Source: a virus
DNA: 64,000 bases
Direction: 5' to 3' (one strand)
Virus record (IMG/VR): IMGVR_UViG_3300037248_000024
Location: 34,051 to 98,050 of that record
The position numbers were made by a program, and so were the translations under genes. Below, in pieces: positions 25,035 through 43,944 of this stretch. The stretch's first letter is position 1. Each line of letters starts with the position of its first letter. Under the pieces are notes generated by a model. It was given only the letters and a program-made list of their open reading frames with translations, had not been told where the DNA came from and did no database searches.

Positions 25035-25190
25035 GGTCTGGGCGAGGGCGCAGATTGACATGCTCTGCTCCTTTCGGATTCAGATTTCCGAAGCTCGACA
25101 TCAAGCCGTCCTCCGGATGCTTCCTGCTTCGTCCGGTCCTTTAGGAGGATGTCCGTCCACAGGCTTCAACGCGCTGTCCGCGCGCCGTAG
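25035..25190 (-). ncRNA. putative TnpB omega/reRNA; guide starts TCTGCGCCCTCGCCCAGACC
   Basis: Right-end-derived RNA inferred from known TnpB biology; boundaries approximate. Confidence 0.6.
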
Positions 25191-26341
25191 TATGATGATC
25201 GCCGCGTTGGTGTCGGCATTGGCTTCGTATCCGCATCCTGTGCAGACAAACCGTACCTGATCCTGTCGGCTTCGTGCATCCACCACGCCACATTCAGCGC
25301 ACGTCTGGCTTGTGTATGCGGCTGGAACTTCGATGAGCCTGCCACCACGATCCGCCAGCTTGTAGGCCAGCATGGTCCGGAAACCGCCCCATCCCTGATC
25401 CAGAATGGCACGGTTCAGCGCTGCCTTTTGCCGGACCATCCTGCCCGGTTCGGCTGCGGTGCCTTTCGCAGATGCGGTCATGTTCCGCACCTTCAATGCC
25501 TCCAAAACGACAGCGCCGTGGTTCTTGGCGATGTCAGTTGAAACCTTATGGAGGAAGTTCTTACGGGCGTTCGCCACCCGCATCTGTATCTTCGCCACGC
25601 GGCGGATGGCCTTGCGGCGATTGGACGAACCGCGCTTCTTGCGGCTCAGGTCGCGTTGCGCCTTCCGGAGCGCCCGGAGCGCCTTTTTGCCGCAGTTCAC
25701 CGGGGCGATGTTGACGCCGTTGGACAACGCGGCGAATACAGCGACGCCGCGATCAATTCCGACCGCTGGCAGAGTGGATGGCGCTGGATCAACTATCTTG
25801 TGCTGCCATTGAACGGAGACGCGCCATTGTCCCGCGTGGCGTGAGACAGTCGCGTTGCGAATGTCTCCAACAACGCGGCGCCAACCTCGAAATGAAATCC
25901 ACCCTAGTTTTGGCAGTTTAATACGTCCAGAAGAGTTGCCGGTGCGTTCAATCCTAAAGGCCTCCGGGTGCGGAAACCGAAAGCTATCATTCAACCCCTT
26001 CTTACGCGGCGTTGGGTACCCGGAACGACTCTTCCACCAGTTCTGATAGGCTTTGTTGAGGTCCATCATCACCTGATGCAACGCATCCGCCGGTACATCC
26101 CTAATCCAATCAACTTGCCTTCGAAGCATGGTGACTTCACGGCACTGACTGGCAAAATTGATCCCCCGTCCGGCGCGGCCAAAAGTCCGCCGCTGTTCCA
26201 AGGCGAGGTTGTAGACGAACCGGCACGCACCCGCGAATCGCGCCATTTTCTGCGATTGCTCGGATGTCGGGTAGAGCCGATAGGTGTTGGCCTTGCGAAT
26301 AATCATAGGCGCACCATGCCAGACTCCAATCCGCGATGCAA
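25055..26341 (-). mobile_element. IS200/IS605-family solo tnpB element (IS1341-like), no tnpA
   Basis: tnpB followed by GCCTGTGGA...GAAGCAGGAA, a terminal hairpin TCC-GAAA-GGA, and the end GCATGTCAA; left end not identified. Confidence 0.8.
25101..26306 (-). CDS. tnpB: RNA-guided endonuclease TnpB
   Basis: YRLYPT HTH; RuvC D (GIDRG), E (VLEAL), D (NADTNAA); Zn finger CAECG/CTGCG. Confidence 0.95.
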   Translation of the reverse strand: MIIRKANTYRLYPTSEQSQKMARFAGACRFVYNLALEQRRTFGRAGRGINFASQCREVTMLRRQVDWIRDVPADALHQVMMDLNKAYQNWWKSRSGYPTPRKKGLNDSFRFPHPEAFRIERTGNSSGRIKLPKLGWISFRGWRRVVGDIRNATVSRHAGQWRVSVQWQHKIVDPAPSTLPAVGIDRGVAVFAALSNGVNIAPVNCGKKALRALRKAQRDLSRKKRGSSNRRKAIRRVAKIQMRVANARKNFLHKVSTDIAKNHGAVVLEALKVRNMTASAKGTAAEPGRMVRQKAALNRAILDQGWGGFRTMLAYKLADRGGRLIEVPAAYTSQTCAECGVVDARSRQDQVRFVCTGCGYEANADTNAAIIILRRADSALKPVDGHPPKGPDEAGSIRRTA

Positions 26342-26403
26342 TAGCAAAATCGCACAATCCGCGAAATTATTGCCTTGACCCTCCCAGGAACCTCGTATAG
26401 GAT
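26313..26403. promoter_or_regulatory. divergent promoters with 10-bp direct repeat CAATCCGCGA (26327, 26355)
   Basis: Minus strand: TTGCAT-17-CATGGT-6-ATG(tnpB); plus strand: TTGACC-17-TAGGAT-7-ATG(26411). Confidence 0.7.
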
Positions 26404-26410
26404 GCGATCC

Positions 26411-26632
26411 ATGAGCCTCAAACAGATCATCAAGGCCCAGGGCCGCACACAACGGTGGATCGCCGGGGAACTCGGCATCTCCGAGGATACATTCTCTCGT
26501 ATGATACTCGAAAAGCAGCCGTTCCCCGTCGATAAGGTCGAACCACTAGCTGACCTGCTCGGTGTTCCGGTGGTGGACGTGCTGCACGCGGTCGCACCGC
26601 CCGGTGCCACCCCACCCGCGAGCGTGTCGTGA
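26411..26632 (+). CDS. Cro/XRE-like HTH regulator
   Basis: GRTQRWIAGELGISEDTFSRMI. Confidence 0.85.
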   Translation: MSLKQIIKAQGRTQRWIAGELGISEDTFSRMILEKQPFPVDKVEPLADLLGVPVVDVLHAVAPPGATPPASVS

Positions 26633-27700
26633 CCGCCATCCTCAACGTCGCCACGCCGGAAGGCCGTGCTCTCGGTCGAGAGATTGCCCGGCTCTGCGAC
26701 GGCGAATTGAAAAACAAACCCGATAACCGTTGCGGGACCTGCGCGGGTCGTGGTGGCGATCATCTCGCGAACGGTTCGCCAGCAACACTGATGTCGTTCG
26801 TCAAAAGCATCGCGGAACGAACGCCGTTCTGGTGCCATGAGCATGATCGTCCCTGCGCTGCATGGCTGGCGCTGCGGTTTTCGAAACCCGTGGAAGTGCC
26901 ATGGGATCACTGTCAGGTCGCTGACGATGCGCCTTGGCTGGTGACCGGCGATGGCGTCGTGGTGACGCCGGATGCGCGTTCGTATTCATCTTTATTGGAG
27001 TCATGACCATGCCGTTCGATCCTGAAATCCCTCTCCGCGACACGCCAACGGTTCATCCGAGGTGGCGGGAGATTGCCACGCTTCACAATATGAAGGCTCG
27101 CCTTTCCAACCCCGACCAATGGTGTCGAGGAAGGCTGTTCGATGGCGCGGCGTCTTGTCTCGTCGGTTCGCTGTGGCTTTCAAATGGTATTGCCGATCCG
27201 ACGGAATGGTCACAAATGCCGATCAGCGGCCAGCAAATATATGACCGGCTGAGAAAACTCACGGCGCGGAGAGATGTCGCGAGTTTCAATGATGATCCCG
27301 CCGTCTCTCATGACGATGTCATGGGTCTTTTGGAGATGGCGTTGCAATCGTTTGAGATGGAGTCCTGATCATGCCCCGCGATGTCCCGTTGAACTTCCCC
27401 GAAACCGAAGCCGCGCCGGACCTGAGCGTGCCGACGCTGCGGGGGTTGGCGTGGTTGTTACGGCACAAAGAGATGTGGCCAAAAAACCATAGATGGGACT
27501 TTAAGGAGTGCGATACGTGCGCGATCGGACTCTCTCAAAGAATGTGGCCCGGAACCAATGCGATAAAACTCACGGGCGATTACGATATGGCACGGTATTT
27601 TTTCAATCGGAGATCGTATCTTCCGGTGGTGGTCGCGCACGTTACCCCAGAAATGGTAGCGGATCGGATCGACCAATGCCTTACCCGGAGCGCCACCTGA
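26629..27700 (+). CDS. three hypothetical genes (26629-27006 Cys-rich, 27003-27368, 27371-27700)
   Basis: Coupled ORFs; CGTCA...FWCHE...CAAW; CLVGSL...FNDDP. Confidence 0.65.
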
Positions 27701-27915
27701 TGCCCACCGGCACCGTCAAATGGTACAGTTCCGAGAAGGGTTACGGCTTCATTTCCCCGGACAACAACACCGGCGGACGGGACCATTTTGTTCATCGCAC
27801 CGCCCTGGCCCGCGCCAACATCGCCACGCTCCATGAAGGCCAGCGCGTCGAATACGAACTGGAACGCGACGACAGGACGGGGAAGGTGGCGGCGGTGGGG
27901 TTGAGGGTGGTGTGA
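27700..27915 (+). CDS. cspA: cold-shock protein
   Basis: MPTGTVKWYSSEKGYGFI...DHFVH (RNP1/RNP2). Confidence 0.93.
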   Translation: MPTGTVKWYSSEKGYGFISPDNNTGGRDHFVHRTALARANIATLHEGQRVEYELERDDRTGKVAAVGLRVV

Positions 27916-28133
27916 TGGGCGCTTCCGAATATCTTCGCGGCAATACCAATCGTTACCGGCCGAATCATAAGCCGGAGACTATTGGTTATGCCCGGCATCT
28001 TTGGGATCATGATTGGTCGGCGTCGGAAATAGCGGCGCAGATCGAACTCAGCCGGAACGCGATTTGCGCCATCGCGAGACGGAATGATTTCGCGGAGCGC
28101 GGGTCTCCGATAAAGAGACGAACCAATGGGTAA
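27912..28133 (+). CDS. GcrA-like N-terminal HTH protein
   Basis: ARHLWDHDWSASEIAAQIELSRNAICAIARR resembles GcrA LW..G.SASQIA..L..TRNAVIG. Confidence 0.65.
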   Translation: MMGASEYLRGNTNRYRPNHKPETIGYARHLWDHDWSASEIAAQIELSRNAICAIARRNDFAERGSPIKRRTNG

Positions 28134-28953
28134 GGCCATGGGCTCAAACGCACGGGCCTATCCAATGGGCGGCATGGCACGCTACCGCAACGTCCCGATG
28201 ACGGAGCCGGTGCCGCGTCATCGTGTGGGGTTGGTCGCCGATAGCGTGGCCCTCCTGGAAAATCGTTCCATCCACCAGAGTTATGTTTTTGACGCGGAAG
28301 ACCGCGAACGAGTGCTGATTGATGGCATCAACAACGCCAAGATCGGAAATCGCGTCACCAAAGGCCCGTGGAGGGGGATGCGAATTTTTACCCTGGCACT
28401 TGAAGAACGCGCAACCTGTCCGGCGTCATGTTCTCTGCTTCGGGAATGCTACGGAAACGGAATGCCTGTCGCGGTTCGGTTCCGGCATACACCTTCTCTC
28501 ATGGCGCGGCTGGACGAAGAATTAGCTGTGCTTGACGATAAGTATCAGAACGGCTTTGTCGTTCGTCTCCATGTGTTGGGTGATTTCCCCACCGCGCTTT
28601 ATGTTCGGCATTGGGAAGTCTGGTCTGATGAATTTCCGGCGCTTCATGTCTGGGGCTATACGGCACATCCGCGCGATAGCGAAATAGGCCGCTTGATCGC
28701 TGGCATGAATGACCACAGGCCAGACCGCTGGTCGATTCGTTTCAGTGTGCCTACAGATGTCAGGTGGTCGCCCATGCAAGCCGCCACGATCTGGACGCCG
28801 GAAGAAATGCACACGCCGCTTGACGCATTGGTGTGCCCACAAGAGTTAGGAAAGACGCAGACCTGCGGGACATGCGCGCTTTGCTGGTCTCCGGCAATGA
28901 AAGATACACGGATTCTGTTTCTTGGACACGGCGGCAGGGGGCACAAGAAATGA
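28126..28953 (+). CDS. GP88-like Cys-rich (radical-SAM-like) protein
   Basis: TCPASC...CYG, RLHVLGDF, WGYT, CP...CGTCALCW. Confidence 0.7.
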   Translation: MGKAMGSNARAYPMGGMARYRNVPMTEPVPRHRVGLVADSVALLENRSIHQSYVFDAEDRERVLIDGINNAKIGNRVTKGPWRGMRIFTLALEERATCPASCSLLRECYGNGMPVAVRFRHTPSLMARLDEELAVLDDKYQNGFVVRLHVLGDFPTALYVRHWEVWSDEFPALHVWGYTAHPRDSEIGRLIAGMNDHRPDRWSIRFSVPTDVRWSPMQAATIWTPEEMHTPLDALVCPQELGKTQTCGTCALCWSPAMKDTRILFLGHGGRGHKK

Positions 28954-29249
28954 TAACCATCCCAGACATTCAGTTCGCCGTGGCGAGTGAGTTCAGCGTC
29001 TCCATGGCAGACATGGTGGAACGCCAACGTTCGGCGCGTATCGCGAGGCCGCGTCAGGTCGCGATGTATTTGTCTCGTCTTCTGACGGGACAAAAGTTCG
29101 TGGCGATAGCCTCGCATTTCGGTGACCGGCATCACACAACGATCATCCACGCGATCAACCGTGTTGGCTGGTTTATTGAAGAAGACATGACATTCGCGAG
29201 CATCGTCGCCGGTCTTGAATACCGGCTTCGCGGTATGCGTGACGCCTGA
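28950..29249 (+). CDS. stand-alone DnaA C-terminal DNA-binding domain
   Basis: RSARIARPRQVAMYLSRLLT...FGDRHHTTIIHA matches DnaA domain IV. Confidence 0.9.
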   Translation: MITIPDIQFAVASEFSVSMADMVERQRSARIARPRQVAMYLSRLLTGQKFVAIASHFGDRHHTTIIHAINRVGWFIEEDMTFASIVAGLEYRLRGMRDA

Positions 29250-29618
29250 CCAAAACCGAAGCCGCCCGGTCGCGCGGCACATGAGAAGGAATGAGATGAT
29301 GACCAAACCATTGACCGTGACTTTCAATATCGACCAGCCAGACAACATTCTGGAACGTGGCGCCGTGCTGACCGATACCGCTAAGGCCGTCGAAGCCTTC
29401 AAGACCTCGATGGAAGGGGCCAAGCATAAGCTGACGGTGACGACGACCGAGGGCGAGCCGGAGGTGAAAACGCGCAAGCCGCGCACCGTTCATCCGGTGG
29501 CCGACGCTCCGGCGCAACCGCCCGTCGTGAAGCCGCGTTCGTTGCATGGCGATGCTGATACGAAAGTCGCCTGAACACACCGCCCGCGCCTCTCGCGCGG
29601 GTCATGGAGGGAAAGAGA

Positions 29619-30515
29619 ATGGCCAGCCCCGGTTCACTCACCGCGCGGATCGTCGCGGAAGGCGGCACGGTAACGCAAGGTTTCCTTGTGCCGATCGATC
29701 ATATCCACGTCGAACCGGGGTTCAACCTTCGAATCCCCGGTCCTGACCTGGATGCCCATATCCGCTGGCTCGCGGATCAGATCAAGCGCGTTGGGTTCGA
29801 CAGCACGCAACCCCTGGCCGTGATCCGGCATCCCGAACTGGATGGTCATGTCATCATCCGCAAGGGGCATTGCCGATACCAGGGCGCCGTTCTGGCCAGG
29901 AAAGAGGGGCGCGAAATCGTCGCGCTACCCTGTCTGCCGGAACCGCGCGGCAGCAACGAGGTCATCCAGACCTACCAACTCGGGACCTCGAACAGTGGAC
30001 TTGGGTTGAACTATCTGGAATACGCTGCCGCCGTGATGCGGTTGCGATCTTATGGCGAGAAAGACGATCAAATCGTCGCGGGTTTCGGCAAGAACAAGGA
30101 ATGGTTGGCTCGGGTTCTCGATCTGAACGAAGCGCCCGTCGCCGTTCGTGAACTGGTGCAACAGGGCAAGGTCACGCAAACCGATGCCTTGATCGTCCAC
30201 AAACGAGAGAAAGCCAACGCGCCGACCGTGTTGCGCGCCGCGGTTGAACGCGCCAACGCCAGGAACAAGAAGCGGGCCACCGGCCAGGACATCAAAGCCG
30301 TCACCGAACGCCCCGCACCGCCCCGCACCGATCCGCCATCCCAGAAACCGGACCTCGCGGCTGATGCGGACTCTGTTATTCGCGCATACAGAAACGCCGG
30401 TCCTCTCAGCCTTGATATCCCGCACGCGCTCGCCGCCGCCCTGGCCAAGCTGGCCGATCATTTTCCGCCGCCAACAGAACCTCAACTTCAACTCACAGAG
30501 GAAGTCGCCGCATGA
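29619..30515 (+). CDS. ParB-like protein
   Basis: IHVEPGFNLR...GHCRY followed by a HTH; alternative start at 29604. Confidence 0.8.
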   Translation: MASPGSLTARIVAEGGTVTQGFLVPIDHIHVEPGFNLRIPGPDLDAHIRWLADQIKRVGFDSTQPLAVIRHPELDGHVIIRKGHCRYQGAVLARKEGREIVALPCLPEPRGSNEVIQTYQLGTSNSGLGLNYLEYAAAVMRLRSYGEKDDQIVAGFGKNKEWLARVLDLNEAPVAVRELVQQGKVTQTDALIVHKREKANAPTVLRAAVERANARNKKRATGQDIKAVTERPAPPRTDPPSQKPDLAADADSVIRAYRNAGPLSLDIPHALAAALAKLADHFPPPTEPQLQLTEEVAA

Positions 30516-31204
30516 TCTCGACATTCTGCCGCGCCGATAGGCTCGCACTCGCTACCTTGTTCCAGAGCAAGGAGGAAACCAGATACTATCTGAATGGGGT
30601 GTTTATCCAGGCCGCAGGCAATGATGGCGTCAATCTGGTGACAACGGACGGCCATCGCATGGCTGTGTTTCATGATGGCGCGGGCCTGACAGGAGCGCCG
30701 TGCATCGTGCCGCTTCCAAAGATTGCCATTGACATCGTTCGGAAGCGCAAAACTCGGGAGTTCTGCTGGTTCGGCATCGTTGGCGAACACACCGGGACGG
30801 GACGCCATGAATGCCGCATTTTCGATACGACCGATCAGGCATCCGAACTCGATGAGGTCCGGGAACGGATGCTGGACCCAAAAGACCGAGGTATCATCTG
30901 GAATGGCGCGATTGATCTGATTGACGGCACCTATCCAGAATGGGCCAGGGTTGTGCCGAAACAGATTCCGAAAAATGGGGCGTCGTGCCATTTCAATGGT
31001 AAACTGTTCGCGGACTTCACGGCGGTTGCCAAGGATCGAAATGACGTTCCGAGCGTCATGGTTTACACCAATGGTAACGAGCCGTCTCTCGTTACCTGCG
31101 GGCGAGACGATTTCGTCGGCGTTCTAATGCCGATGCAAGGCGATGAACGAGCGCTTCGCGAGGATATGCGAGGGTGTTTTACGCCATCGTGGTTGCATCC
31201 GTGA
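30512..31204 (+). CDS. truncated DNA polymerase III beta-clamp-like protein
   Basis: ETRYYLNGV, TTDGHRM, IDGTYPEWARVVP, VLMPM. Confidence 0.85.
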   Translation: MISTFCRADRLALATLFQSKEETRYYLNGVFIQAAGNDGVNLVTTDGHRMAVFHDGAGLTGAPCIVPLPKIAIDIVRKRKTREFCWFGIVGEHTGTGRHECRIFDTTDQASELDEVRERMLDPKDRGIIWNGAIDLIDGTYPEWARVVPKQIPKNGASCHFNGKLFADFTAVAKDRNDVPSVMVYTNGNEPSLVTCGRDDFVGVLMPMQGDERALREDMRGCFTPSWLHP

Positions 31205-31907
31205 TTAGCATCCGACGCTTGAGGCGGCGCGGCAGAAACGAGAAAGTCGCATGACCACCACCCTCATCTCCAAATACGACACCCGCCCGCCGGACCGCAC
31301 CACGCGATGGTGGCGCGTGCTGCACCGCCTTGATGACATGCGGCACAGGCGCAAACAACTGGCCCGCGACCTAGCCAGGCTGGATCGGGCCATCGCGGAG
31401 AAAGAGGCGGAACTGAGCGCGCTGGTTTTGAAGGAGTAAATGGGATGGCGGACAACAAACAGGCCCAGGTCGCGGATCAATGCCGATGCGTCGCGGGCCT
31501 TTGCCGCGCCATCGCGGCAGTTCATCAGGATTACGCCACTCTGTTCAATGAGGGCCGCATGGAAGACGTCGCTGACCAGATAGGCAATCGAACCGCCGCG
31601 CTCATGGAGGAACTGGGCAACATCCTGAACGGCATGGACGCGGTTGACGGCGCCGACGAATGGATGGACCCGATTTTCGCCGAGGCGCACAGAATGTTTC
31701 CGCAATCATCATGACCTTGCACCTGACAACCTGCCACAACGCCCATCCCTTCCCATGCGATTCGGAGATCAAGGAACTGGCGCGGCGTCTGGCCCATGGC
31801 AGGAGGATCGACTCCGCCGATGGTCCGTTTTTCGTTCCGTTCATCGTTCAGAGTGGTTCCCGTGACGCCGGGGTCGTGGTGGCGGTGTTGGGGAGGGCGG
31901 TGGGGCG

Positions 31908-32483
31908 GTGACGGGCACCAAAAAAGACAGCGGCTACGACCGCGATCCCGACGACTGGTATGTTGAAAATGAAGCCTGCGTTCGCTCGTTATTCGACGCC
32001 ATGCCGTGGTTCCGCGCGAATGGCGCCCATGATCCTTGCTGTGGTGGCGGCAACATTCCGCACGTCGCCGCGAAAATGGGTATAGCGGTCAGCGGTGCCG
32101 ATAAGGTTGATCGCTGCAACGGCGGCTTCCCTGTCCGGGAGTTCCTGTCCGACAACACGCGGCGCAAAGCAATCGTAACCAATCCACCATTCGGTATCGC
32201 CATCGAGATCGTCAAACACGCGTTGGATGTTGTTGATGACGGCGGCTATGTCGCGATCATCGGTCAGGCGAAGTTTCTGTTCTCTCAGGCACGGCATCCA
32301 TTGTTCATGCGGCGTGAGATGGATCGTGTACTGGTGTTGTCGAAGCGGCCTTCCATGCCGCCAGGGAAATTGCTGGCGGAGAAGGGAGAGGAGGTGCGTG
32401 GAAATGGCTTCCACGACTTTTGCTGGTTCGTTTGGCGGGTTGGTAAAACATCGCCGGGCGCTGCGATTTCGTGGCTCCCATGA
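31908..32483 (+). CDS. DNA adenine methyltransferase (small phage type)
   Basis: DPCCGGG followed by IVTNPPF. Confidence 0.85.
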   Translation: MTGTKKDSGYDRDPDDWYVENEACVRSLFDAMPWFRANGAHDPCCGGGNIPHVAAKMGIAVSGADKVDRCNGGFPVREFLSDNTRRKAIVTNPPFGIAIEIVKHALDVVDDGGYVAIIGQAKFLFSQARHPLFMRREMDRVLVLSKRPSMPPGKLLAEKGEEVRGNGFHDFCWFVWRVGKTSPGAAISWLP

Positions 32484-32496
32484 CGGGACGCGGCGG

Positions 32497-33288
32497 ATGA
32501 GCGTGCGGGTCGAACGGATCGGGGATGCGACGCTGTATCTGGGGGATGCTGCCGAGGTTATTCCCATCTTGCCGATGATCGAACTCGTCATCACCGATCC
32601 CCCATTCAGTAGCGGCGCTCGCACCGACAGCGAGCGGCAGGTGCGCGGTGCCATGCTGCGATCCATGGAAGATGCCGATTGGTTCAGCCACGACGCGATG
32701 ACCACCTGGGGATTTACGTGGTTCCTGCGTTCGGCGTTTTCAGCGCTGCGTCAGCGTATGATTCCAGGCGCGCACGCCTATGTGTTCATTGACTGGCGAC
32801 AAACGCCAACCGTGTATGGGCTGATGGAAGCGACGGGCTTTCGGGTGAACCATTGTCTTGTCTGGGCTAAGCCGCATTTTGGCATGGGTTCCTATTGGCG
32901 CAATCAGCACGAAAACATCGTGTTCGCCAGCAACGGAATGCCGAACGACATGCTTGATCGAGGTATGGGTAGCGTACTGCGTCACCCAGCGGTTTCGCCT
33001 GATGCTCGCGTTCACCCAACCGAAAAGCCCGTTGGATTGCTTGAAGCAATCATCACCGCCGTTCCTGGTGCGGTCGTTTTTGATCCGTTCATGGGAAGCG
33101 GCAGTGCGGCCGCGGCTGCGTTACTCTGTGGCCGATCATTCATCGGGTGCGAGATCAATCCACATCATTTCGATGTCGCTTGTCAACGCGCTGAAGCAGC
33201 TCGGCGTGCCGGGCCACGTATGCAATGGATGGCGCAGCCACCCGAAGACCAACGCATCGCTGATCTTTTCGCGGAACCGGAAACCTAG
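32497..33288 (+). CDS. beta-class N4C/N6A DNA methyltransferase
   Basis: ITDPPF ... HPTEKP ... DPFMGSG. Confidence 0.92.
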   Translation: MSVRVERIGDATLYLGDAAEVIPILPMIELVITDPPFSSGARTDSERQVRGAMLRSMEDADWFSHDAMTTWGFTWFLRSAFSALRQRMIPGAHAYVFIDWRQTPTVYGLMEATGFRVNHCLVWAKPHFGMGSYWRNQHENIVFASNGMPNDMLDRGMGSVLRHPAVSPDARVHPTEKPVGLLEAIITAVPGAVVFDPFMGSGSAAAAALLCGRSFIGCEINPHHFDVACQRAEAARRAGPRMQWMAQPPEDQRIADLFAEPET

Positions 33289-33970: not shown

Positions 33971-34771
33971 GTGAGTGACGACAGCGGTTCACTATCTATA
34001 ATTACCAGGGTGAGCGCTATTTCTCATGGATTATCAAGATTCTTTACCGGAAAACCATGCAAACGGCATCATGTTGCTGAACGATTTGTCATAGGCGGTG
34101 ACTGTGTATTATGCAGACCTATCCGAGCTGCCGAATGGGAAGAACAAAACCCAGGTGCGCGACGTGCAAACCTAAAAAACTGGCAAAAAGCGTTCCCCGA
34201 ACGTCAACTGCAAGCTACTCTGAGATGGCGTGAAGCCAACAGAGACAAAGTCTTGGCCACAAGCGCCGCATACAAGGTAGCAAATGCTGAAAGTATTGCG
34301 GCTAAAAAATATACCCGTTGCCGGACGAATGAATACCGCATCATGAACCGAGACGCACAAAGAGTCAGGCGCGCGAACACAGAAAAAAGAGAAAATGATA
34401 AGTTGGTCTTACGCAACTGGCGAAGCAGACCTGAGGTGGCGGAGCATCTAAGAAAAGCCGCCTCCGTATGGCAGAAAAATAACCCCGATAAAGTAAGGAC
34501 CATCAATCGCAATAGTAAAGCCCGGCGCAAAAAGGCGGAAGGACGCCATACAGCACAAGATATTGCGAACATTTATCAGTTGCAGAGGGGTAAATGCGCG
34601 ATATGTAAAAGTGCATTAAATGGAAAATACCACGTCGATCATATTGTGGCGCTAAAAAACGGAGGCTCGAATTGGCCTCGCAATCTTCAATGCCTTTGTC
34701 CACCGTGCAATCTGAGAAAGTCTGACAAACATCCTGTAGTTTTTGCTCAAGAAAGAGGATTGCTCCTGTGA
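33971..34771 (+). CDS. HNH endonuclease
   Basis: CAIC...HVDHIVALKNGGSNWPRNLQCLCPPCNLRK; lower GC than flanks. Confidence 0.93.
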   Translation: MSDDSGSLSIITRVSAISHGLSRFFTGKPCKRHHVAERFVIGGDCVLCRPIRAAEWEEQNPGARRANLKNWQKAFPERQLQATLRWREANRDKVLATSAAYKVANAESIAAKKYTRCRTNEYRIMNRDAQRVRRANTEKRENDKLVLRNWRSRPEVAEHLRKAASVWQKNNPDKVRTINRNSKARRKKAEGRHTAQDIANIYQLQRGKCAICKSALNGKYHVDHIVALKNGGSNWPRNLQCLCPPCNLRKSDKHPVVFAQERGLLL

Positions 34772-35481
34772 GTTTCTGGTTCCTCGCAACACCATATTCC
34801 CGTTTTCCCGACGGCATTGAGGCGGCTTTCAATTTAGCGGTCGAAGCGCGCGGCCTTTTGCTCAAGGCCGGAGTCCCGGTGTTCAGTCCCATTATTCATT
34901 CTCATCCGGTCGCGGTTCGATGCGGCATTGATCCTCTCGATCATTCAATTTGGCTTCCAAGCGAGGCGCCGATTCTTCGAAGTGCGATTGGATTGATAAT
35001 GCTGCGTGCGGAATCCTGGGGAATCAGTTACGGGATGAACCATGAGAAAAAGACATTTGAAGCGGCTGGAAAACCCGTAATCTGGATGGATGTAGGAGTC
35101 GTACCGGAGTATTTCACGGCTAAGAGGATAGCCGCACCGTTAGACCCCCAATCCCCTCTCATCGAATTTCTGGACAAATGCGCCGCTCTTGGTAATGCGC
35201 CACGAGAAGATCGCATCCGATCCGCCGTGAATGATTTGCGGGAGTTATATCCGCTTCTCACGGCATGGTTAGGTTATGGGAAGACGGAGGGGGTTCTCCA
35301 TCCATGTGATGATGGGATTCCATGGGGTCATCATCCCGGCGGTGGGGAGTGGGTCCCTATCAACAAGACGCCACTTCTCGCCGCTGGACTGGGACCGGCA
35401 CCTTTTTATGCCATGATCGGCGGGGTGTTTACGTATGTCGTGCATGAAGCGCCAGCGACTCCCTCTATTTCTGATGCCTGA
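34768..35481 (+). CDS. DUF1937-like protein with C-terminal extension
   Basis: FLATPYS...VFSPIIHSHP...SYGMNHE. Confidence 0.8.
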   Translation: MSFWFLATPYSRFPDGIEAAFNLAVEARGLLLKAGVPVFSPIIHSHPVAVRCGIDPLDHSIWLPSEAPILRSAIGLIMLRAESWGISYGMNHEKKTFEAAGKPVIWMDVGVVPEYFTAKRIAAPLDPQSPLIEFLDKCAALGNAPREDRIRSAVNDLRELYPLLTAWLGYGKTEGVLHPCDDGIPWGHHPGGGEWVPINKTPLLAAGLGPAPFYAMIGGVFTYVVHEAPATPSISDA

Positions 35482-36052
35482 TTTGGACGCCACTAAACCG
35501 TGGATACAAAACAGTCCTGAGCAGCGCCTGTCTGTAGCAACCTATCGTTTATTGAAACGAACGCTTCTCTCACCAAAATACATAACCGCGATCCATGACA
35601 GCGACGGCGGAGGCCGTAGCGATCTCCAAAGAATCAGGGATGCGAACAGAGGTATCACAACGGGTCAGTTGGATTTTGATGTGGTGCAAGGGGTAACGGT
35701 GGAATTGAGAGATGGCACCTCCGTTGTTCGCGCCCTCTGCCGGAAGCTGGAACTGAAACGCGGTAAAAACACATTATCCCCACGCCAGAAAATAACTGTA
35801 AGTGTGCTAACGGCATGTGGTGCTCCTCCAATCATCGCATGGACATTGGCCGAAGTGCATGATGGATTGAAAGCCGCCGGATTCAGATTTGGGAATAATG
35901 TGGGATACGTGCTGCCACATTTAGAAGAGGAACTGGGAGAATGGGATCGAAAAGCAGAGGCTATTTTAAGTGGGGAAATCATTCAGAAAAGACAGTATGC
36001 TGGCGGTCGGCCCAAGGAACGAACAAAACCTGGGCTGACGTGGAAATTGTGA
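35474..36052 (+). CDS. VRR-NUC-like PD-(D/E)XK nuclease
   Basis: GITTGQLD...LELKRGKNTLSPRQ. Confidence 0.7.
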   Translation: MPDLDATKPWIQNSPEQRLSVATYRLLKRTLLSPKYITAIHDSDGGGRSDLQRIRDANRGITTGQLDFDVVQGVTVELRDGTSVVRALCRKLELKRGKNTLSPRQKITVSVLTACGAPPIIAWTLAEVHDGLKAAGFRFGNNVGYVLPHLEEELGEWDRKAEAILSGEIIQKRQYAGGRPKERTKPGLTWKL

Positions 36053-36062
36053 TGGGCGGGGG

Positions 36063-36090
36063 TTGACATGGTGCGAGAGTGGTGTATATC
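36063..36090 (+). promoter_or_regulatory. sigma70-like promoter (leaderless)
   Basis: TTGACA-16-TATATC-6-ATG(36097). Confidence 0.6.
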
Positions 36091-36096
36091 TGCCTC

Positions 36097-36255
36097 ATGG
36101 TTGGTCAAGTGAGTAGTACCGCACGAGAGAGTGAACGTCAGTCTGTGACGTTCACCAGTCCACAAATGGCCTTTCTGAAAAAGGAAGCCAAGAAATTGGG
36201 CGTTTCCGTGGGGGAGCTTATTCGACGCATCGTGGATCAGTTCAGAGGGGCATGA
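36097..36255 (+). CDS. CopG-like ribbon-helix-helix protein (52 aa)
   Basis: ERQSVTFTSPQMAFLKKEAKKLGVSVGELIRRIVD; read by eye, not in the ORF track. Confidence 0.8.
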   Translation: MVGQVSSTARESERQSVTFTSPQMAFLKKEAKKLGVSVGELIRRIVDQFRGA

Positions 36256-36256
36256 A

Positions 36257-37225
36257 GTGGCCTACCGCCGAGAAGGAGGTATATACTGCATTCGACATAC
36301 GGACGGTCGTTCTTATGTTGGGTCGGCAGTTTCCTTTACCCGTAGATGGTACTCTCATCGCCGTGAACTTAATCGCGGCACTCATCATTCTAAAAAACTA
36401 CAACACGCCTGGACAAAATATGGTTCTGAAGCGTTTTCATTCATTATTTTAGAGGCGGTGGAAGATCGTGCTAACCTTCTGGTCCGTGAACAATTTTGGA
36501 TTGACCATCTGAAATCTGCCAGCCGCAGCGGCCTGAATATGTGTCCAAATTCTCGTAGCCAACTTGGTATGCGACATTCGGAAGACGCCAAGCGACGGAT
36601 AGGGGAAAAAGGTCTCGGTCGAAAAATGAGCGCGGAAAGCAGGCGAAAATTAAGTGATAGCAAAAAAGGTATAAGACCAAGCGCCGCGACAATTGAAAAA
36701 ATGAGAATCCGAATGTTAGGTCACATTCGGTCTCCTGAATCCCGCGCAAAGGGGGCGGCCTCTAACCGGGGCCGCATCACGCCGCCAGAGGTGCGCGCTA
36801 AACAGAGCGCGGCCAAGATCGGGAAGAAAGCAACTCCAGAGCATCGTGAAAATGTCAGACGTGCCCGATTGGGTGTCGGTCTTTCCGAGGCGGCAAAAAA
36901 GAAACTTAGCTTGGCTAACAAAGGCCGAGTTCATACAGCGGAAGCGCGTGCGAAAATTAGCGCCGGAAAGATCGGAAAGCCACGTAGCGCAGAAGCCAGG
37001 GCTAAACAAAGTGCCTCGCGAATGGGTATAAAATTGAGTATAGAAACACGTTCTAAGATGAGTGTCGCTCAGACTGGTCGTAAACATACGCCAGAGACGC
37101 GTGCAAAAATTGGCGCCGCTCATAAAGGTCGTAAACACAGCCCCGAGATGATCGCAAAATATATCGTCACTCGCGTTCGAAACAATCGTATCCGAGCGAT
37201 GCAACAGGAGAACATCCATGCCTGA
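36257..37225 (+). CDS. GIY-YIG homing endonuclease with NUMOD3 repeats
   Basis: GIYCI...SYVGS...RW..H...REQFWI followed by about 12 tandem 17-aa repeats. Confidence 0.93.
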   Translation: MAYRREGGIYCIRHTDGRSYVGSAVSFTRRWYSHRRELNRGTHHSKKLQHAWTKYGSEAFSFIILEAVEDRANLLVREQFWIDHLKSASRSGLNMCPNSRSQLGMRHSEDAKRRIGEKGLGRKMSAESRRKLSDSKKGIRPSAATIEKMRIRMLGHIRSPESRAKGAASNRGRITPPEVRAKQSAAKIGKKATPEHRENVRRARLGVGLSEAAKKKLSLANKGRVHTAEARAKISAGKIGKPRSAEARAKQSASRMGIKLSIETRSKMSVAQTGRKHTPETRAKIGAAHKGRKHSPEMIAKYIVTRVRNNRIRAMQQENIHA

Positions 37226-38177
37226 CGGAACAACGAATGCGCCCCGCGCACGCCGCAGCAAACTTCTCGCGGTCCCCCCTGAATCGATCCAACCAAAGCG
37301 TCCGAAGTTTCTGATTTATGGACCGCCAGGAGTGGGGAAAAGCTGGGTCGCCGCAGACTATCCATCGTGCTACTACATAGATACGGAGGGCGGCGCTGAT
37401 ATGGATCAGTACCAAGCAAAGTTACGCGCATCTGGCGGCGTCTACCTTGGACCAGGTGAAGGATCACTTGATTTTGATGTGGTTATTGACCAAATGAAAG
37501 CCTTGGCCGAAGAAAATCATCCATACCGCACCGTCGTGATTGATTCCATTTCCAAATTGTGGAATGTGGCTCTCACAGATGAACAAGAGGCTCTCGGCGA
37601 CAAGGATGCTTTTGGGGCTTATAAAAAGCTGCCGACTCGTAAATTTGCCTCTTTGCTGAAATGGGTAAATCGCCTCGACCTCAATGTTATTTTCATCGCG
37701 CATCAGAAAGAAATCTGGGGCCTGAACGACAAAAAGCAACGCGAGGTCATTGGGTATGGTGCGGACGCGCAAGATAAATTGGAATACGATCTCCATCTCG
37801 TGTTGCGCATTGCCAAGATAGGACCATCGCGTTACGCCTATATTGGTAAGTCTCGGCTTCCCAGTTTCCCAGAGGGCGAACGGTTCAACTGGTCGTACGC
37901 AGACTTCGCCGATCGTTATGGAAAAGATGTCATTGAAAAAGAAGCGGTTCCGCTCGATCTGGCGACACCGGAGCAACTCACAGAACTTAACCGCTTATTG
38001 AGCTTCGTTAAGATGCCCGACGATTGGGAGGCTAAAGTGTTCAAAGTCGCTGGTATCGAAGCATGGGAAGAAATCGACGCCACGAAAATCGCTGCCATCA
38101 TCGACATGCTGAAAAAGCGAATCAATGGAGGTGGTGGAAACGAAGAAGACGGTGCGGCGACCGCCAAAGCGACGTGA
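37218..38177 (+). CDS. AAA_24 / Sak4-like ATPase recombinase
   Basis: IYGPPGVGKS, IDTEGG, VVIDSIS, IFIAH. Confidence 0.88.
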   Translation: MPDGTTNAPRARRSKLLAVPPESIQPKRPKFLIYGPPGVGKSWVAADYPSCYYIDTEGGADMDQYQAKLRASGGVYLGPGEGSLDFDVVIDQMKALAEENHPYRTVVIDSISKLWNVALTDEQEALGDKDAFGAYKKLPTRKFASLLKWVNRLDLNVIFIAHQKEIWGLNDKKQREVIGYGADAQDKLEYDLHLVLRIAKIGPSRYAYIGKSRLPSFPEGERFNWSYADFADRYGKDVIEKEAVPLDLATPEQLTELNRLLSFVKMPDDWEAKVFKVAGIEAWEEIDATKIAAIIDMLKKRINGGGGNEEDGAATAKAT

Positions 38178-38403
38178 AATTCATCCCACTACCATCGTCA
38201 TCTCCGCGCTCGTTACGCCGGGACAGGATTGACGGCGACCCTCCCGTTACGTTGGAACTGGTCTATGACCCCAGAGACGGCAAGAAATATCTATCTCTTG
38301 GGGTTGGAGATAGGGCGGTACGGCGATCGTGGCTGTCCGTAAATGCAGTAACCGGACTATCCAAAAGTGTGTTGTCAATGTTGAAAGAAATGGAGAAAAC
38401 CAC

Positions 38404-38937
38404 ATGAGACTCGAAAAAACCATCACCAAGGAAGAAGCCGACGCTGGCGGCGGATTTAAGCCGTGGCCCGACGGGACATACGACTTTGAAATCAAGGAGG
38501 CCGCCGATGATGTCAGTAAGGCTGGAAATTCCCAGATCAAGCTGACATTGTGGGTCTATGACGATGAAGGTCATCGGCGCATGATTTTCGACTATCTCGG
38601 AGCCAGTGAGGCCGGGCAATTCAAGGTTCGTCATTTCTGCGAATCCATCGGAATGATTCGGCAGTATGAAGAAGGAAATCTGGAACCCGACGAGATGGAA
38701 GGGAAGACCGGACGCGTACGGCTGGGATATAAAAAAGCCCAGGGGGACTACCCAGAAGGCAATCAGGTGCGCGACTATGTTTCAGGTGGAGACGAAGCGC
38801 CGCGCGCCGCTCGCCCGGCGTCAGCATCGCGCGCAGCCGCTCCAGCCACTTCGCGTCCGGCATCGGCGCCGCGTGCTTCGCAAAGCACCGGGGCCATGAT
38901 CGACGATGACATTCCCTTTGCTCCTGAGTGGCGATGA
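38404..38937 (+). CDS. DUF669-like single-stranded DNA-binding protein
   Basis: PDGTYDFEI...SKAGN...; acidic tail DDDIPF. Confidence 0.85.
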   Translation: MRLEKTITKEEADAGGGFKPWPDGTYDFEIKEAADDVSKAGNSQIKLTLWVYDDEGHRRMIFDYLGASEAGQFKVRHFCESIGMIRQYEEGNLEPDEMEGKTGRVRLGYKKAQGDYPEGNQVRDYVSGGDEAPRAARPASASRAAAPATSRPASAPRASQSTGAMIDDDIPFAPEWR

Positions 38938-39639
38938 GTCTCCACACCCAACCCAACGTGGTCGAACTGAAACATGGTCGCGGATCAAATCGATCCGTGA
39001 TCCTGGTTCAGAAAGAACCGCCTCGGAAATGGCTGGCTCGTGTGAGGTGGTCGTCAGCAAAGAAGCTATGGTTGGTTACCAAAGGGGAGCCTCTCGCGTT
39101 GGGTAAGGTCGTCGCCTCCGCGCATGGTTTTGAAAGTGCGCGAGAGTTGGCGCATAAGATGGCGCTGTTGTGATGCCCGCACCCTCTCCAAAACCAATCT
39201 TTACCCCACCGCAAACTCCACCTTCTCACACCGGCTCTCTATGGCTCAACCCAGACAAAACCATCGGAGGCATCATTTCCGATGTGTTCAATGAGCCGAT
39301 TCATTTCGTCGGAACCAAGGTTCCTGGAGAGGCGGAATATCGTGTGAGGGGTTGGCGTGGGGTAGGTCCGGAGTTTCGCCGTCTTCCCATTGAGGGGGCG
39401 CCGCGAGAAGATGGGTTGCCTGATGGCGCGCCATCCGCTCCCTGTAAAATTTGCGAAGGAAGATTATTTTGGCGAGCGTCCATAATTTCTGGGGGCGGCT
39501 CCGGACCATGGCGCTGTGCCACATGCGAACCCGCCGATTCCTCGCTTTGGCTCGACGGTTTGGCTGTTCCGCCATCGTCTAAAGCCACCACTTTGCAGCC
39601 CTCATCCAAACCAACGCCACCTAAAGAAGGCAGCCTCCT

Positions 39640-40944
39640 TTGATCTCTCTTTCAGAAATCGAGCTAAACGCCGCACAACAAAAGGCAGAAAAAGAAATCG
39701 GCGCATCCATCGAAATGTCACGGCAGCATTTACTTACAGGTGATGCTGGAACGGGAAAGACGGTCCTCGTTCAAAAGATCGCCGTGAAGCAACAGGAACG
39801 TCGCAAAAAAATAGTCCTTACCGCGCCAACTCATAAAGCCGTCGCCGTCCTCGAACGCAAACTAAAAGCGGCTGGAATTGATATCCGGTGCCAAACCATC
39901 CATTCATTGCTTTCGCTTTGCCCCAAGGCGCAAGGTGATAAGCAGATATTCGTTCGTGCACCAAAAGCCAAACCGGTGCTGGAAGACATTATCGTTATAG
40001 ACGAATGCTCCATGCTCGACGCCTCCATGATGCAGCACATTGAACGGCATCTGTCTGGCCGAGCAGTTATTCTGTGTGGCGACGTTGGGCAGTTACCTCC
40101 AGTTGGTGAAAGGGAGTCGCGTTCGTTTTCTGTGATGCCGCGTAGCCACCTCCAAGAGGTCGTTCGACAGGCACAGGGGAATCCAATCATCGCCGCGTCC
40201 CAGATCATCAGGAAAAATCAAACCGATGGCAGCGGTGTCGTCGATTGGTCGTGGTGTAGGGAAGCAAGGGGAGAAGCAAATACACCCCTGGAAAATACCG
40301 GAGTCTTTACACCCCACAGAAGTGATGTAGACGCCTGGATCAGAAAGGGATTTACCTCAGAAGCGTTTCGTGCCGATCCTGATAATTTTCGCTATCTGGC
40401 CTGGACCAATGCGCGTGTGGCTGAAATCAACGCGAAGATCAGACGATGGATATATCCAGGAGAAGACCTGTCCACCCCGTTCATATCAGGGGAAACGGCA
40501 CTGCTTCGCTCACCATTGGTAATCGATAACCAAATCCTGATCGCGACCAATGAAGAAGTGAAGGTGCTTTCCATCCAAACCGGGGAGCAACTTGGTATCG
40601 CGACCTGGGAAATGAAGGTTGTGACAGAAAGTGGGATGGACCACAATATTCACTTGCCACGTGATTGGGATGGATATCGGATCGCTCTGGCTGAACTGGC
40701 GGATGCTGCCAAAGCTGATTCTTATTTGTGGGAGAACTATCACGATTTCAAAGCTGCTTTTATCAACGCGCAGCAATGTATGGCGCTGACCGTTCATTCG
40801 AGCCAGGGAAGCACCTTCACCTGGACCTACCTCGATATTCCCGATATCAGAAAACGGATTAAGGACAATCTACTTGAGGCCCAGCAGCTATTGCTGACGG
40901 GGGCAACTCGGCCAAGCGATGGGCTGGTGTTGGTGGGGGTTTGA
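39640..40944 (+). CDS. SF1B (Dda/RecD-like) helicase
   Basis: GDAGTGKT, APTHKA, IDECSM, GDVGQLPPV, VRQ, TVHSSQGST. Confidence 0.93.
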   Translation: MISLSEIELNAAQQKAEKEIGASIEMSRQHLLTGDAGTGKTVLVQKIAVKQQERRKKIVLTAPTHKAVAVLERKLKAAGIDIRCQTIHSLLSLCPKAQGDKQIFVRAPKAKPVLEDIIVIDECSMLDASMMQHIERHLSGRAVILCGDVGQLPPVGERESRSFSVMPRSHLQEVVRQAQGNPIIAASQIIRKNQTDGSGVVDWSWCREARGEANTPLENTGVFTPHRSDVDAWIRKGFTSEAFRADPDNFRYLAWTNARVAEINAKIRRWIYPGEDLSTPFISGETALLRSPLVIDNQILIATNEEVKVLSIQTGEQLGIATWEMKVVTESGMDHNIHLPRDWDGYRIALAELADAAKADSYLWENYHDFKAAFINAQQCMALTVHSSQGSTFTWTYLDIPDIRKRIKDNLLEAQQLLLTGATRPSDGLVLVGV

Positions 40945-40969
40945 CGCGGCCTTACCAACTTGGTATATG
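40941..40969 (+). promoter_or_regulatory. sigma70-like promoter
   Basis: TTGACG-17-TATATG. Confidence 0.6.
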
Positions 40970-40998
40970 TTGGTCATCAAGGGGAGAGGCGGCGACCC

Positions 40999-41169
40999 AT
41001 GGATGACGATAAGCGGCTTGAACAGGTCCATCTGCGCTTCCGCAAGGCGGTTCTGGACGCCGCCAAAGCTGATGCTGCCCGTAAGGGCCAACCGCTCACC
41101 ACCTGGTTCGAACGCCTTGTAGAGGCTTCAATGCCTCAGGAAACGCAAGATGCGGAGAGCGCACGATGA
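40999..41169 (+). CDS. ribbon-helix-helix protein
   Basis: QVHLRFRKAVLDAAKADAARKGQPLTTWFERLV. Confidence 0.7.
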   Translation: MDDDKRLEQVHLRFRKAVLDAAKADAARKGQPLTTWFERLVEASMPQETQDAESAR

Positions 41170-41933
41170 AAATCTCTGGACCAACTGACCCATCCGGCTC
41201 TCCTTTGCTACCTGAACCATCCGCCATCATCATCCCCTTTGGCAAACATAAGGGAAAGACTGTCGCGGAACTGCTGGCGACCGATCAGCCCTATGCGGAC
41301 TGGATCACGGCGCAGGGATGGGTGGCCGAGAGGTTCGCGGAACTCCACGCCGCTATTGTTACACGGAGCGCGGGGGCAGATGATACGCCGGAGCACAATG
41401 CGCTCCAGGCGCGATTTTTGGATGAAGGGTTTCGACGTGGATTTCTTTTGTTGTGCGCTAAGGATTTGAGAGAGAGAATTACTGAAGCGAAGCGTTTGCT
41501 TATGGACAGCGCAAATTATGTAATAAATCTGTTTGATCACCCGAAATATGGATGGGAGACTATTTCTCAGGCGCGCTACGATAATGCGAAGTCCATCCTG
41601 GAGAAAATCACATCAGGGGCTGTCCGTATAAAAAGCACTGTTCAATTTGAGGTTTCTGGAATTGATGTTTTTATTACATATGGAGGCGCATTGAGCAGTG
41701 AAATTGTTTCTCCAAAACGGATTTCCGTTGAGTTAAAACCGGCCCTCGGTGACGACTACCCATCTGTTATGCGTCAGATGCAGCGATTGCATTGCAGTCT
41801 CATAGTGGTCGGTCAATATACCGGGCGCGGCGTGTCTGAGCCTCAATTACGTCAGATGTTCGAGGCGAATGATTGTCAGTTGGTATTTGTCCAGGAAATC
41901 GAGGAGCGCATTCGCAACACGGCGACTCCGTAA
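41166..41933 (+). CDS. DUF3820-like N-domain fused to a possible PD-(D/E)XK domain
   Basis: IPFGKHKGKTVAEL...YADW; IDVF...VELKP. Confidence 0.6.
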   Translation: MKISGPTDPSGSPLLPEPSAIIIPFGKHKGKTVAELLATDQPYADWITAQGWVAERFAELHAAIVTRSAGADDTPEHNALQARFLDEGFRRGFLLLCAKDLRERITEAKRLLMDSANYVINLFDHPKYGWETISQARYDNAKSILEKITSGAVRIKSTVQFEVSGIDVFITYGGALSSEIVSPKRISVELKPALGDDYPSVMRQMQRLHCSLIVVGQYTGRGVSEPQLRQMFEANDCQLVFVQEIEERIRNTATP

Positions 41934-42190
41934 TTTTATGTCCTTGCAGCCCTCCGTTTTCGCGGATGCGTTCCGGCGCCATGCCGTGCCAAAGATACGG
42001 CAGGTTATGATGGTGCGTGCTCATTTCGTGGGAATCGGTCTCTATGATTTTTCAGATGCCTACGCCGATGTGATGATTTATGCGGGCCAGCTTGGCGCAT
42101 TTTATCTTCCTGATGAGCATCTGGATGCACTCTATGATTGGGTAGCCGGATTGCTGACTGATATGGCCGCCGCTGTTGGTGAGGCGGCTG

Positions 42191-43600: not shown

Positions 43601-43650
43601 TATTTCATCTAAAAAATAAACCAAATAATTTCAATATGTTAGTTTTTTTC

Positions 43651-43917: not shown

Positions 43918-43944
43918 CCGCTTGCCTTCTGAGTGTCAGGATTG

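Follow-up and report, generated by a model that had tools for sequence, protein, structure and literature searches.

Gene content and conservation of the block

We analysed a window of 64,000 nucleotides, bases 34051-98050 of the 98,050-bp virus record IMGVR_UViG_3300037248_000024, and describe here a block of genes at 27700-33288 on its + strand (all coordinates are in window numbering). The record carries direct terminal repeats and is rated 100% complete; its source is a soil phage with a complete genome, and the host is probably an alphaproteobacterium. The block sits in a long rightward gene string and is the promoter-proximal half of a rightward early operon. It encodes a cold-shock protein (Csp), the DNA-binding head of GcrA, a GP88-like protein, a stand-alone domain IV of DnaA (DnaA-IV), a small protein (orf92), a ParB-like protein, a fragment of the beta clamp (mini-beta), three small open reading frames (ORFs) and two methyltransferases (MT1 and MT2). 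A previous reading of the letters without database searches (the sequence-only reading) had already placed the Csp, a GcrA protein reduced to its helix-turn-helix (HTH), the DnaA-IV, the ParB-like protein, the clamp fragment and the two methyltransferases here, and we recovered all seven at those places on the + strand; its gene list had passed over the GP88-like gene, orf92 and the three small ORFs. The tight coupling that it described over 5.6 kb is also present: stop and start codons overlap at 27912/27915, 28126/28133, 28950/28953, 30512/30515, 31711/31714 and 31908/31911, which indicates co-translation of the block genes, and the other intergenic gaps are 46 nucleotides (nt) at most. The raw ORFs were too long at the 5' end for the Csp, DnaA-IV and MT2 genes, and the gene boundaries were refined.

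Conservation of the block was assessed with tblastn and hidden Markov model (HMM) searches over 60 viral DnaA-IV loci and about 40 clamp-like loci. None of these loci, a set that excludes the nearest relatives (P0002-P0007), holds more than three block members, and scans of metagenomes and viral contigs found no relatives above 34% identity. The five large phages whose DnaA-IV is the closest have neither the clamp-like nor the ParB-like gene. Two recurrent sub-modules plus the Csp make up the block, a mosaic and not one fixed unit. Sub-module A consists of the GcrA head, the GP88-like protein, the DnaA-IV and the beta-class methyltransferase, and sub-module B of the ParB-like protein and mini-beta. 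The idea that the cluster travels together across phages therefore holds for the DnaA-IV with the GcrA head (10/57 loci) and with the methyltransferase (17/57 loci), but fails for the block as a whole, as the five large phages also illustrate.

A stand-alone DnaA domain IV beside a GcrA head

The GcrA N-terminal DNA-binding head (27915-28133, + strand, 72 aa) covers profile positions 6-55 of the 155 in PF07750, with direct scores of 21.5 and 19.3 bits under a cut-off of 26.9. An exhaustive HMMER scan detected 63 relatives of the protein. Since 49 of the 55 relatives scanned match PF07750 (best E 5e-44), we consider it a genuine GcrA DNA-binding head; a word-index search returned the protein itself only. 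The C-terminal domain by which GcrA interacts with sigma70 is absent from the 72-aa protein. The EcfG fusion that the sequence-only reading had taken as the source of a second GcrA-like domain gave an hhalign probability of 1.8% against the GcrA head (residues 87-116), and across the whole genome the GcrA-head HMM matched the 72-aa gene only.

The following gene (28126-28953, + strand, 275 aa) encodes a phage protein of the GP88/DUF7227 family (PF17338, 27.1 bits; phrog_2554, E 2.8e-28) with two conserved cysteine clusters, C-x3-C-x5-C and C-x9-C-x2-C-x2-C. The GP88 atlas clusters are mostly viral. No PDB sequence match was found, and a low-confidence fold model (pLDDT 56.6) predicts an alternating beta/alpha core. 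GP88-like genes lie 5' of DnaA-IV in five viral genomes (this phage, and L012, L037, L052 and L063 among all 60 DnaA-IV loci); the two genes abut here and in L037, L052 and L063, and are about 1.1 kb apart in L012.

The DnaA-IV itself (28950-29249, + strand, 99 aa) is a stand-alone HTH protein that matches PF08299 with 82.3 bits, E. coli DnaA-IV (PDB 1J1V) with 57.8 bits over query residues 2-79, and TIGR00362 with 87 bits at profile positions 346-434 of 437. Both the AAA+ domain III and domain I of DnaA are absent from it. Taking the DnaA-box contact roles of DnaA residues as cited in PMC9638019, we found R399, S400, P406, R407, Q408, H434, T435 and H439 to be kept in this protein, with D433 replaced by H and R442 by N. 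Contact residues are also widely retained in the 58 distinct viral DnaA-IV proteins: R399 in 49/58, P406 in 57/58, R407 and Q408 in 58/58 each, D433 in 53/58, H434 in 57/58, T435 in 52/58 and H439 in 49/58. We found no paper on stand-alone phage DnaA-IV, though literature coverage was incomplete.

Stand-alone DnaA-IV genes were found at 57 distinct viral loci. Their maximal ORFs have a median length of 186 aa, to be read with the caution that ORFs over-extend in GC-rich DNA. Co-occurrence was counted in these 57 loci, each at least 6 kb and up to 16 kb long. A GcrA-head ORF is present in 10 of the 57, and in eight of these 10 it lies within 500 nt of the DnaA-IV gene or overlaps it; GcrA-head and DnaA-IV genes abut in about seven distinct viral contigs. 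Homologues of MT2 were detected in 17/57 loci, of MT1 in 7/57 and of the GP88-like protein in 3/57. GcrA heads and MT2 homologues are both missing (0/33 each) from 33 control loci, which are not taxon-matched. The immediate neighbours of viral DnaA-IV vary widely, with Mu Gam, RusA, MuB and methyltransferases among them, and no family appears in more than 3 of 107 neighbours.

In three contigs catalogued as viral (L032, L034 and L039), a clamp-like ORF lies just 3' of the DnaA-IV match. Closer inspection of L032 and L034 revealed a full-length clamp after a 350-aa DnaA-like ORF, and we rejected these two as probable bacterial dnaA-dnaN fragments in the viral collection.

A clamp fragment encoded behind a ParB-like protein

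The first gene of sub-module B (29619-30515, + strand, 298 aa, with an alternative start at 29604) encodes a predicted orphan ParB/KorB-like DNA-binding protein. It matches phrog_1033 (E 7e-35) and Pfam KorB (26.1 bits, cut-off 22.3), and reaches 15.7 bits on the chromosomal ParB model TIGR00180 against a cut-off of 58.45. The protein carries the motifs EPGFNLR and GHxRY (here GHCRY), which are common to its phage homologues, and the three ParB-like proteins that we compared with phmmer are homologous (E 1e-17 to 1e-22). We discarded its C-terminal QLQLTE as a possible clamp-binding motif, since the homologues do not have this sequence.

The start codon of mini-beta (30512-31204, + strand, 230 aa) overlaps the stop codon of the ParB-like gene. 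By sequence, mini-beta aligns to residues 136-203 and 235-290 of the E. coli beta clamp. In its AF2 model (pLDDT 94.4), residues 1-210 match beta 123-366 at about 173 of 243 positions (VIA Z 12-14.3). As modelled, mini-beta lacks clamp domain I, keeps domain II and has about half of domain III. Its RYYLNG, TDGHRM, P142/R146/V147 and VLMPM correspond to E. coli R152-G157, T172-L177, P242/R246/V247 and V360-M364, residues that we take to line the peptide-binding pocket between domains II and III. Conservation within the mini-beta family is highest in the columns of these same pocket elements (RYYLNG, TDGHR, IDGxxPxxxxVxP and MPMR). The E. coli pair I272/L273, which we presume to lie in the clamp dimer interface, aligns to A/K, and on the model mini-beta is predicted to be unable to form a ring.

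Mini-beta is matched by 1290 proteins, the best 120 of which are mostly 186-290 aa long; it belongs to a family of phage proteins of 170-290 aa and is not a broken gene. Its nearest relatives (P0002-P0007) share 63-74% identity with it, the closest of them 69-74%, and one lies on an 87-kb contig. Members occur in cultured phages of Salmonella, E. coli, Shigella, Klebsiella, Pseudomonas, Burkholderia and Ralstonia. Matches in Aurantimonas AmM-1 and Paracoccus Pthi1 were set aside as full-length phage clamps of about 370 aa. We found no paper on mini-beta, again with incomplete coverage of the literature.

The hit lists for mini-beta and the ParB-like protein have 26 phage records in common, and in every one of them a ParB-like gene lies 0.4-1.6 kb 5' of mini-beta in the same orientation. 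The 26 comprise Skatevirus-type enterobacterial phages and the Pseudomonas phages D14E, zjk6, TC7 and Riah (L103 and L105 included); the same arrangement is found in a Pantoea genome contig. The hosts of these phages are Salmonella, E. coli, Shigella and Pseudomonas, so the pair is not a feature of the alphaproteobacterial cell cycle. It is a pan-proteobacterial phage feature.

Members of the mini-beta family are usually mis-labelled as 'RusA-like Holliday junction resolvase' (PHROG 3007 and many RefSeq phage records; for example L103:4983-5657, L104:5061-5576 and L105:4974-5510). Small proteins encoded near mini-beta end in QGELL in D14E (L103:8474-8824) and in QMELL in BcepC6B (L104:1348-1707); these ends are clamp-motif-like, maybe by chance.

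Two methyltransferases, one with clamp-motif-like tails in its family

The amino-methyltransferase MT1 (31908-32483, + strand, 191 aa; phrog_799, E 1.4e-39) has its motif I, DPCCGGG, ahead of motif IV, NPPF, and no Pfam, NCBIfam or PDB sequence match was found for it. MT2 (32497-33288, + strand, 263 aa; PF01555, 86.7 bits; phrog_67, E 1e-55) is an N6/N4 DNA methyltransferase, and since its DPPF precedes FDPFMGSGS it belongs to the beta class, to which the sequence-only reading had assigned one of the two. MT2 is far from CcrM: it scores 61 bits on the CcrM equivalog model NF050803, against a cut-off of 830, and its match to CcrM 6PBD spans residues 169-241 at most, in the motif I region, with no CcrM C-terminal domain.

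We identified 5178 homologues of MT2 at E <= 1e-10, with up to 85% identity. The C-terminal tail of MT2 ends in ...QRIADLFAEPET. Among the best 120 homologues, 82 have a Qxx[LM][FLI] motif in their last 45 residues, compared with a mean of 3.3/120 in shuffled tails, and the density of the motif in the family is 1.81 per 100 aa in tails versus 0.008 in bodies. The tails carry QGSLF, QGDLF, QPDMF or QLSLI, often two of them in one tail (P0185-P0304; L013-L065). These motifs match the consensus of the bacterial clamp-binding motif. The peptide AcQADLF is a crystallised clamp ligand (4K3O). Judged by these tails, docking on the sliding clamp by way of the C-terminal motif is probable for the MT2 family and would couple methylation to replication. 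No paper on clamp-binding methyltransferases was found in our incomplete coverage of the literature.

Remaining genes and genomic setting

The Csp gene opens the block (27700-27915, + strand, 71 aa), its start codon sharing 1 nt with the stop codon of the preceding ORF. The protein matches PF00313 (60.5 bits) and phrog_729, has the RNP1 and RNP2 motifs (KGYGFI and HFVH), and scores 67.8 bits on the CspE-type NCBIfam model, under the equivalog cut-off. Between DnaA-IV and the ParB-like gene, orf92 (29296-29574, + strand, 92 aa) has no Pfam, PHROG or NCBIfam match. Three small ORFs, taken from the ORF list with its translations, follow mini-beta on the + strand at 31251-31439, 31445-31714 and 31711-31911; the second of them has no Pfam, PHROG or NCBIfam match, the scan having covered this one of the three.

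The rightward operon is opened by a promoter-like site, TTGACC-17-TAGGAT (26375-26403, + strand), and a Cro-like HTH gene (PF13560) that lies within 26375-26632 on the + strand. A tnpB gene with TnpB domains (25101-26357, - strand) is divergent from the operon. On the 3' side of the block, the same strand encodes RHH, HNH and GIY-YIG proteins, a Sak4-like ATPase, an SSB-like protein, an SF1 helicase and an ExoX-like protein, and the string ends with a VapE-type helicase-primase at 43600. An ECF-type sigma gene is located at 4974-6002. Searches of the complete genome detected no DNA polymerase of family A, B or C, so that the phage depends on the host replisome; they also detected no ParA-type ATPase (PF13614 and PF01656 both absent) and no tyrosine integrase. 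The phage looks non-integrating.

The replication module at 34000-44000 has about 50-54% GC, compared with about 59% elsewhere, and contains homing-type endonucleases (HNH, 33971-34771; GIY-YIG/NUMOD3, 36257-37225); composition and endonucleases together suggest a foreign origin for it. GANTC is depleted about two-fold and evenly along the genome (237 sites versus 487 +/- 21 expected), and GATC is not depleted (692 sites versus 641 expected). The depletion of GANTC fits an alphaproteobacterial host and says nothing on the specificity of the methyltransferases.

DnaA boxes, iterons and a candidate origin

The DnaA box TTATCCACA has no site in the phage genome. Sites with one mismatch number 59, against 61 expected, without any meaningful cluster; two groups of three such sites were examined and discarded as within the range of chance. 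Caulobacter G-boxes are not enriched in the phage either. Given that the viral family keeps the contact residues and that the phage has no excess of DnaA boxes, a host DnaA box is a plausible target of the DnaA-IV. For this one protein, the host-directed view of the sequence-only reading is partly supported; it does not extend to the ParB-like protein, the clamp fragment and the Csp, whose genes lie outside any cell-cycle circuit.

At 43651-43899 we detected an iteron cluster in which the 9-mer TGTTCCTAC occurs in eight exact and three one-mismatch copies, in both orientations, with no exact copy elsewhere in the 98-kb genome. The cluster adjoins an AT-rich stretch directly 3' of the VapE helicase-primase gene, at the end of the rightward arm, and from its layout it looks like a candidate replication origin or binding site of the ParB-like protein. 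The iteron is unlike the DnaA box. A crude k-mer scan found no intergenic motif shared across the phage.

Interpretation of the block

We favour reading the block as a mosaic early operon, in which sub-modules A and B and the Csp are combined, DnaA-IV would compete with its host counterpart and mini-beta would capture proteins with clamp motifs; we place the probability of this reading at about 45%. Its binding targets, and any effect on the host, we infer from the results given above on domains and their truncation, conserved residues, gene order and co-occurrence. To judge from its retained contacts, DnaA-IV most likely binds DnaA-box DNA. Lacking the AAA+ domain, it cannot oligomerise or open an origin, and the phage's want of a DnaA-box excess, together with its own helicase and iterons, makes host DNA the more likely target. 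It could then act as a competitor at the host oriC or at DnaA-regulated promoters. The GcrA head may bind GcrA-type promoter DNA without the half that contacts sigma70. The KorB-type ParB-like protein would be made in translational coupling with mini-beta, whose conserved pocket suggests that it most likely captures or relocates proteins with clamp-binding motifs. MT1 and MT2 may modify the phage DNA.

Several observations weigh against this reading. The stand-alone DnaA-like heads of GafA and GafY are activators of phage-derived genes. Both D433H (3/58 viral DnaA-IV proteins) and R442N (2/58) occur in this phage, so that the specificity of its DnaA-IV may differ and the absence of canonical boxes is not decisive. 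The control loci in the co-occurrence counts are mostly Pseudomonas prophages. Of the ParB-like loci in bacterial genomes, 22 of 23 have no mini-beta, and mini-beta is found without a ParB-like gene in BcepC6B, where it lies beside a DNA polymerase, and in L003-L009. The tail of this phage's own MT2 is degenerate, with IADLF in place of a motif with the canonical Q.

The strong rival, which we nevertheless rate as rather unlikely, is that these proteins are regulators of the phage's own genes. DnaA-IV and the GcrA head would then form a split activator/anti-terminator of the GafY/GafZ kind at middle or late promoters, the ParB-like protein would act on the iterons as a KorB-like silencer or origin organiser, mini-beta would bring host Pol III to the phage origin and the methyltransferases would serve in anti-restriction. 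The precedent is substantial. The N-terminal DnaA-like head of GafA is essential for activating gene-transfer-agent promoters, and in Hyphomicrobiales a small DnaA-like gene precedes a shortened gafA homologue, a split gene order (PMC9638019). Caulobacter GafY has 20 binding sites and makes contact with sigma70 domains 3-4, and GafZ is an anti-terminator (PMC11150451). On this precedent, adjoining DnaA and GcrA heads could be the two parts of a phage transcription factor, and the abutting of the two genes in several viral contigs, the ECF-type sigma gene as part of the phage's own transcription programme and the unique iteron cluster at the arm end all agree with this. Against it, true DnaA is by a wide margin the better match of DnaA-IV (87 bits on TIGR00362), the PRK06030 families of small DnaA-like proteins being matched weakly (about 24 bits); its DnaA-box contacts are kept, yet the phage has no excess of DnaA boxes; the k-mer scan gave no shared intergenic motif; and TGTTCCTAC, the iteron, is unlike a DnaA box.

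A further possibility, which we regard as unlikely and a shade more so, is a 'plug and socket' tapping of the host network of beta clamp, DnaA and GcrA. The free DnaA head would occupy host boxes, the ring-less pocket, delivered with a ParB-like DNA clamp, would capture bearers of clamp-binding motifs such as HdaA, Pol III subunits or the phage's own methyltransferase, and the MT2 family would ride on the sliding clamp by its C-terminal motif. If true, it would mean replication-coupled DNA methylation in bacteria, analogous to eukaryotic DNMT1-PCNA.

The sequence-only reading had proposed a cell-cycle hijack, with the GcrA head, DnaA-IV, ParB-like protein and clamp fragment as concerted dominant negatives on initiation and segregation and the methyltransferases as CcrM, and this we find improbable. 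It has in its favour that the effector halves of the cellular relatives are missing from all the proteins, that DnaA-IV, the GcrA head and a beta-class methyltransferase co-occur in other viral contigs, that the viral DnaA-IV family conserves its DnaA-box contacts, that this phage has no excess of boxes, and that isolated phage GcrA homologues and CcrM-like methyltransferases have been published (PMC3556154, PMC9437464). However, the block is not conserved as a unit, and the ParB-like/mini-beta pair is a typical feature of phages whose hosts (Salmonella, E. coli, Shigella and Pseudomonas) lack the GcrA/CcrM circuit. The pair is thus not a mimic of alphaproteobacterial segregation; the ParB-like protein is of the KorB/phrog_1033 type, far under the cut-off of the chromosomal ParB model, and the phage has no ParA. 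MT2, at its equivalog score, is not a CcrM counterpart, and a phage that needs the host replisome would be harmed by a general block of the clamp. The observation behind the proposal is confirmed, and its interpretation is partly supported.

Accretion of independently acquired accessory genes, linked by the early transcript only, is likewise improbable. Uneven conservation (a near-orphan GcrA head beside MT2 homologues of up to 85% identity) and diverse DnaA-IV neighbours (no family above 3/107) speak for it; against it are a non-random DnaA-IV/GcrA-head adjacency (8/10 within 500 nt in loci of up to 16 kb), a ParB-like gene followed by mini-beta in 26/26 shared records across distant lineages, and overlapping stop and start codons that signal co-translation.

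With the mosaic early operon as the preferred reading, the general theme is not new, since phage GcrA and CcrM-type methyltransferases have been published. What the present analysis adds is a large viral family of stand-alone DnaA-IV proteins that keeps the DnaA-box contacts and tends to adjoin GcrA heads and beta-class methyltransferases, a widespread mini-beta family with a pocket and without a ring, often encoded after a ParB-like gene, and a methyltransferase family with tails that resemble clamp-binding motifs. The mini-beta pocket protein and the methyltransferase tails are the most testable new leads. All three families could show how phages without a polymerase redirect the host replisome, and the tails could show whether bacteria or phages couple DNA methylation to the replication fork.

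Comparison with known systems

The GcrA homologue gp222 of phiCbK-type Caulobacter phages was proposed to alter the host replicative state (Gill et al. 2012, PMC3556154), and phage GcrA homologues have been published alongside CcrM-like methyltransferases (PMC3556154, PMC9437464). As in the phiCbK-type phages, a member of the GcrA family is borne here by a probably alphaproteobacterial phage; unlike their GcrA, which belongs to pfam07750, it is a 50-residue head in a 72-aa protein and falls under the Pfam cut-off. By analogy, the small DnaA-IV-like head without an AAA+ domain, paired with a second HTH protein, appears to resemble GafA of Rhodobacter capsulatus and GafY. The similarity of GafA to DnaA is remote, at HHpred level and with poorly kept contacts, whereas the phage protein is a clear DnaA-IV; its partner is a GcrA head and not the sigma-like GafZ.

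MT2 shares with CcrM and with the methyltransferase of Sinorhizobium phage PhiLM21, which has CcrM specificity according to Dziewit et al. 2014 as cited in PMC12429752, the beta class with motif IV before motif I; like the PhiLM21 enzyme it is phage-borne in an alphaproteobacterial setting. Unlike CcrM, it stays below equivalog level and has no CcrM C-terminal domain.

The ParB-like protein agrees with those of Salmonella phage SeSz-2 and Pseudomonas phage vB_PaeS-D14E in its motifs and in its position 5' of mini-beta. In those phages two or three small genes lie between the two, whereas here the genes overlap. Compared with ParABS partition systems, the ParB N-terminal domain and HTH are present and the partner ParA is absent from the complete genome.

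Mini-beta resembles DnaN (E. coli 2POL, Caulobacter 6IZO) in its pocket residues and, both in sequence and in fold, over domain II and the first half of domain III; it differs in lacking domain I and about 70 residues of domain III. MuC of phage Mu, TrfA of RK2 and TnsE of Tn7 use clamp-binding motifs, and over-production of MuC, or sequestration of the clamp, disturbs the Hda-dependent control of DnaA (bioRxiv 10.1101/2025.01.04.631326). By analogy with these three, the block may be another case in which a mobile element exploits the clamp pocket. MuC, TrfA and TnsE are motif carriers that use the host clamp, whereas in this phage the pocket itself is copied and the motif-like tail belongs to a methyltransferase.

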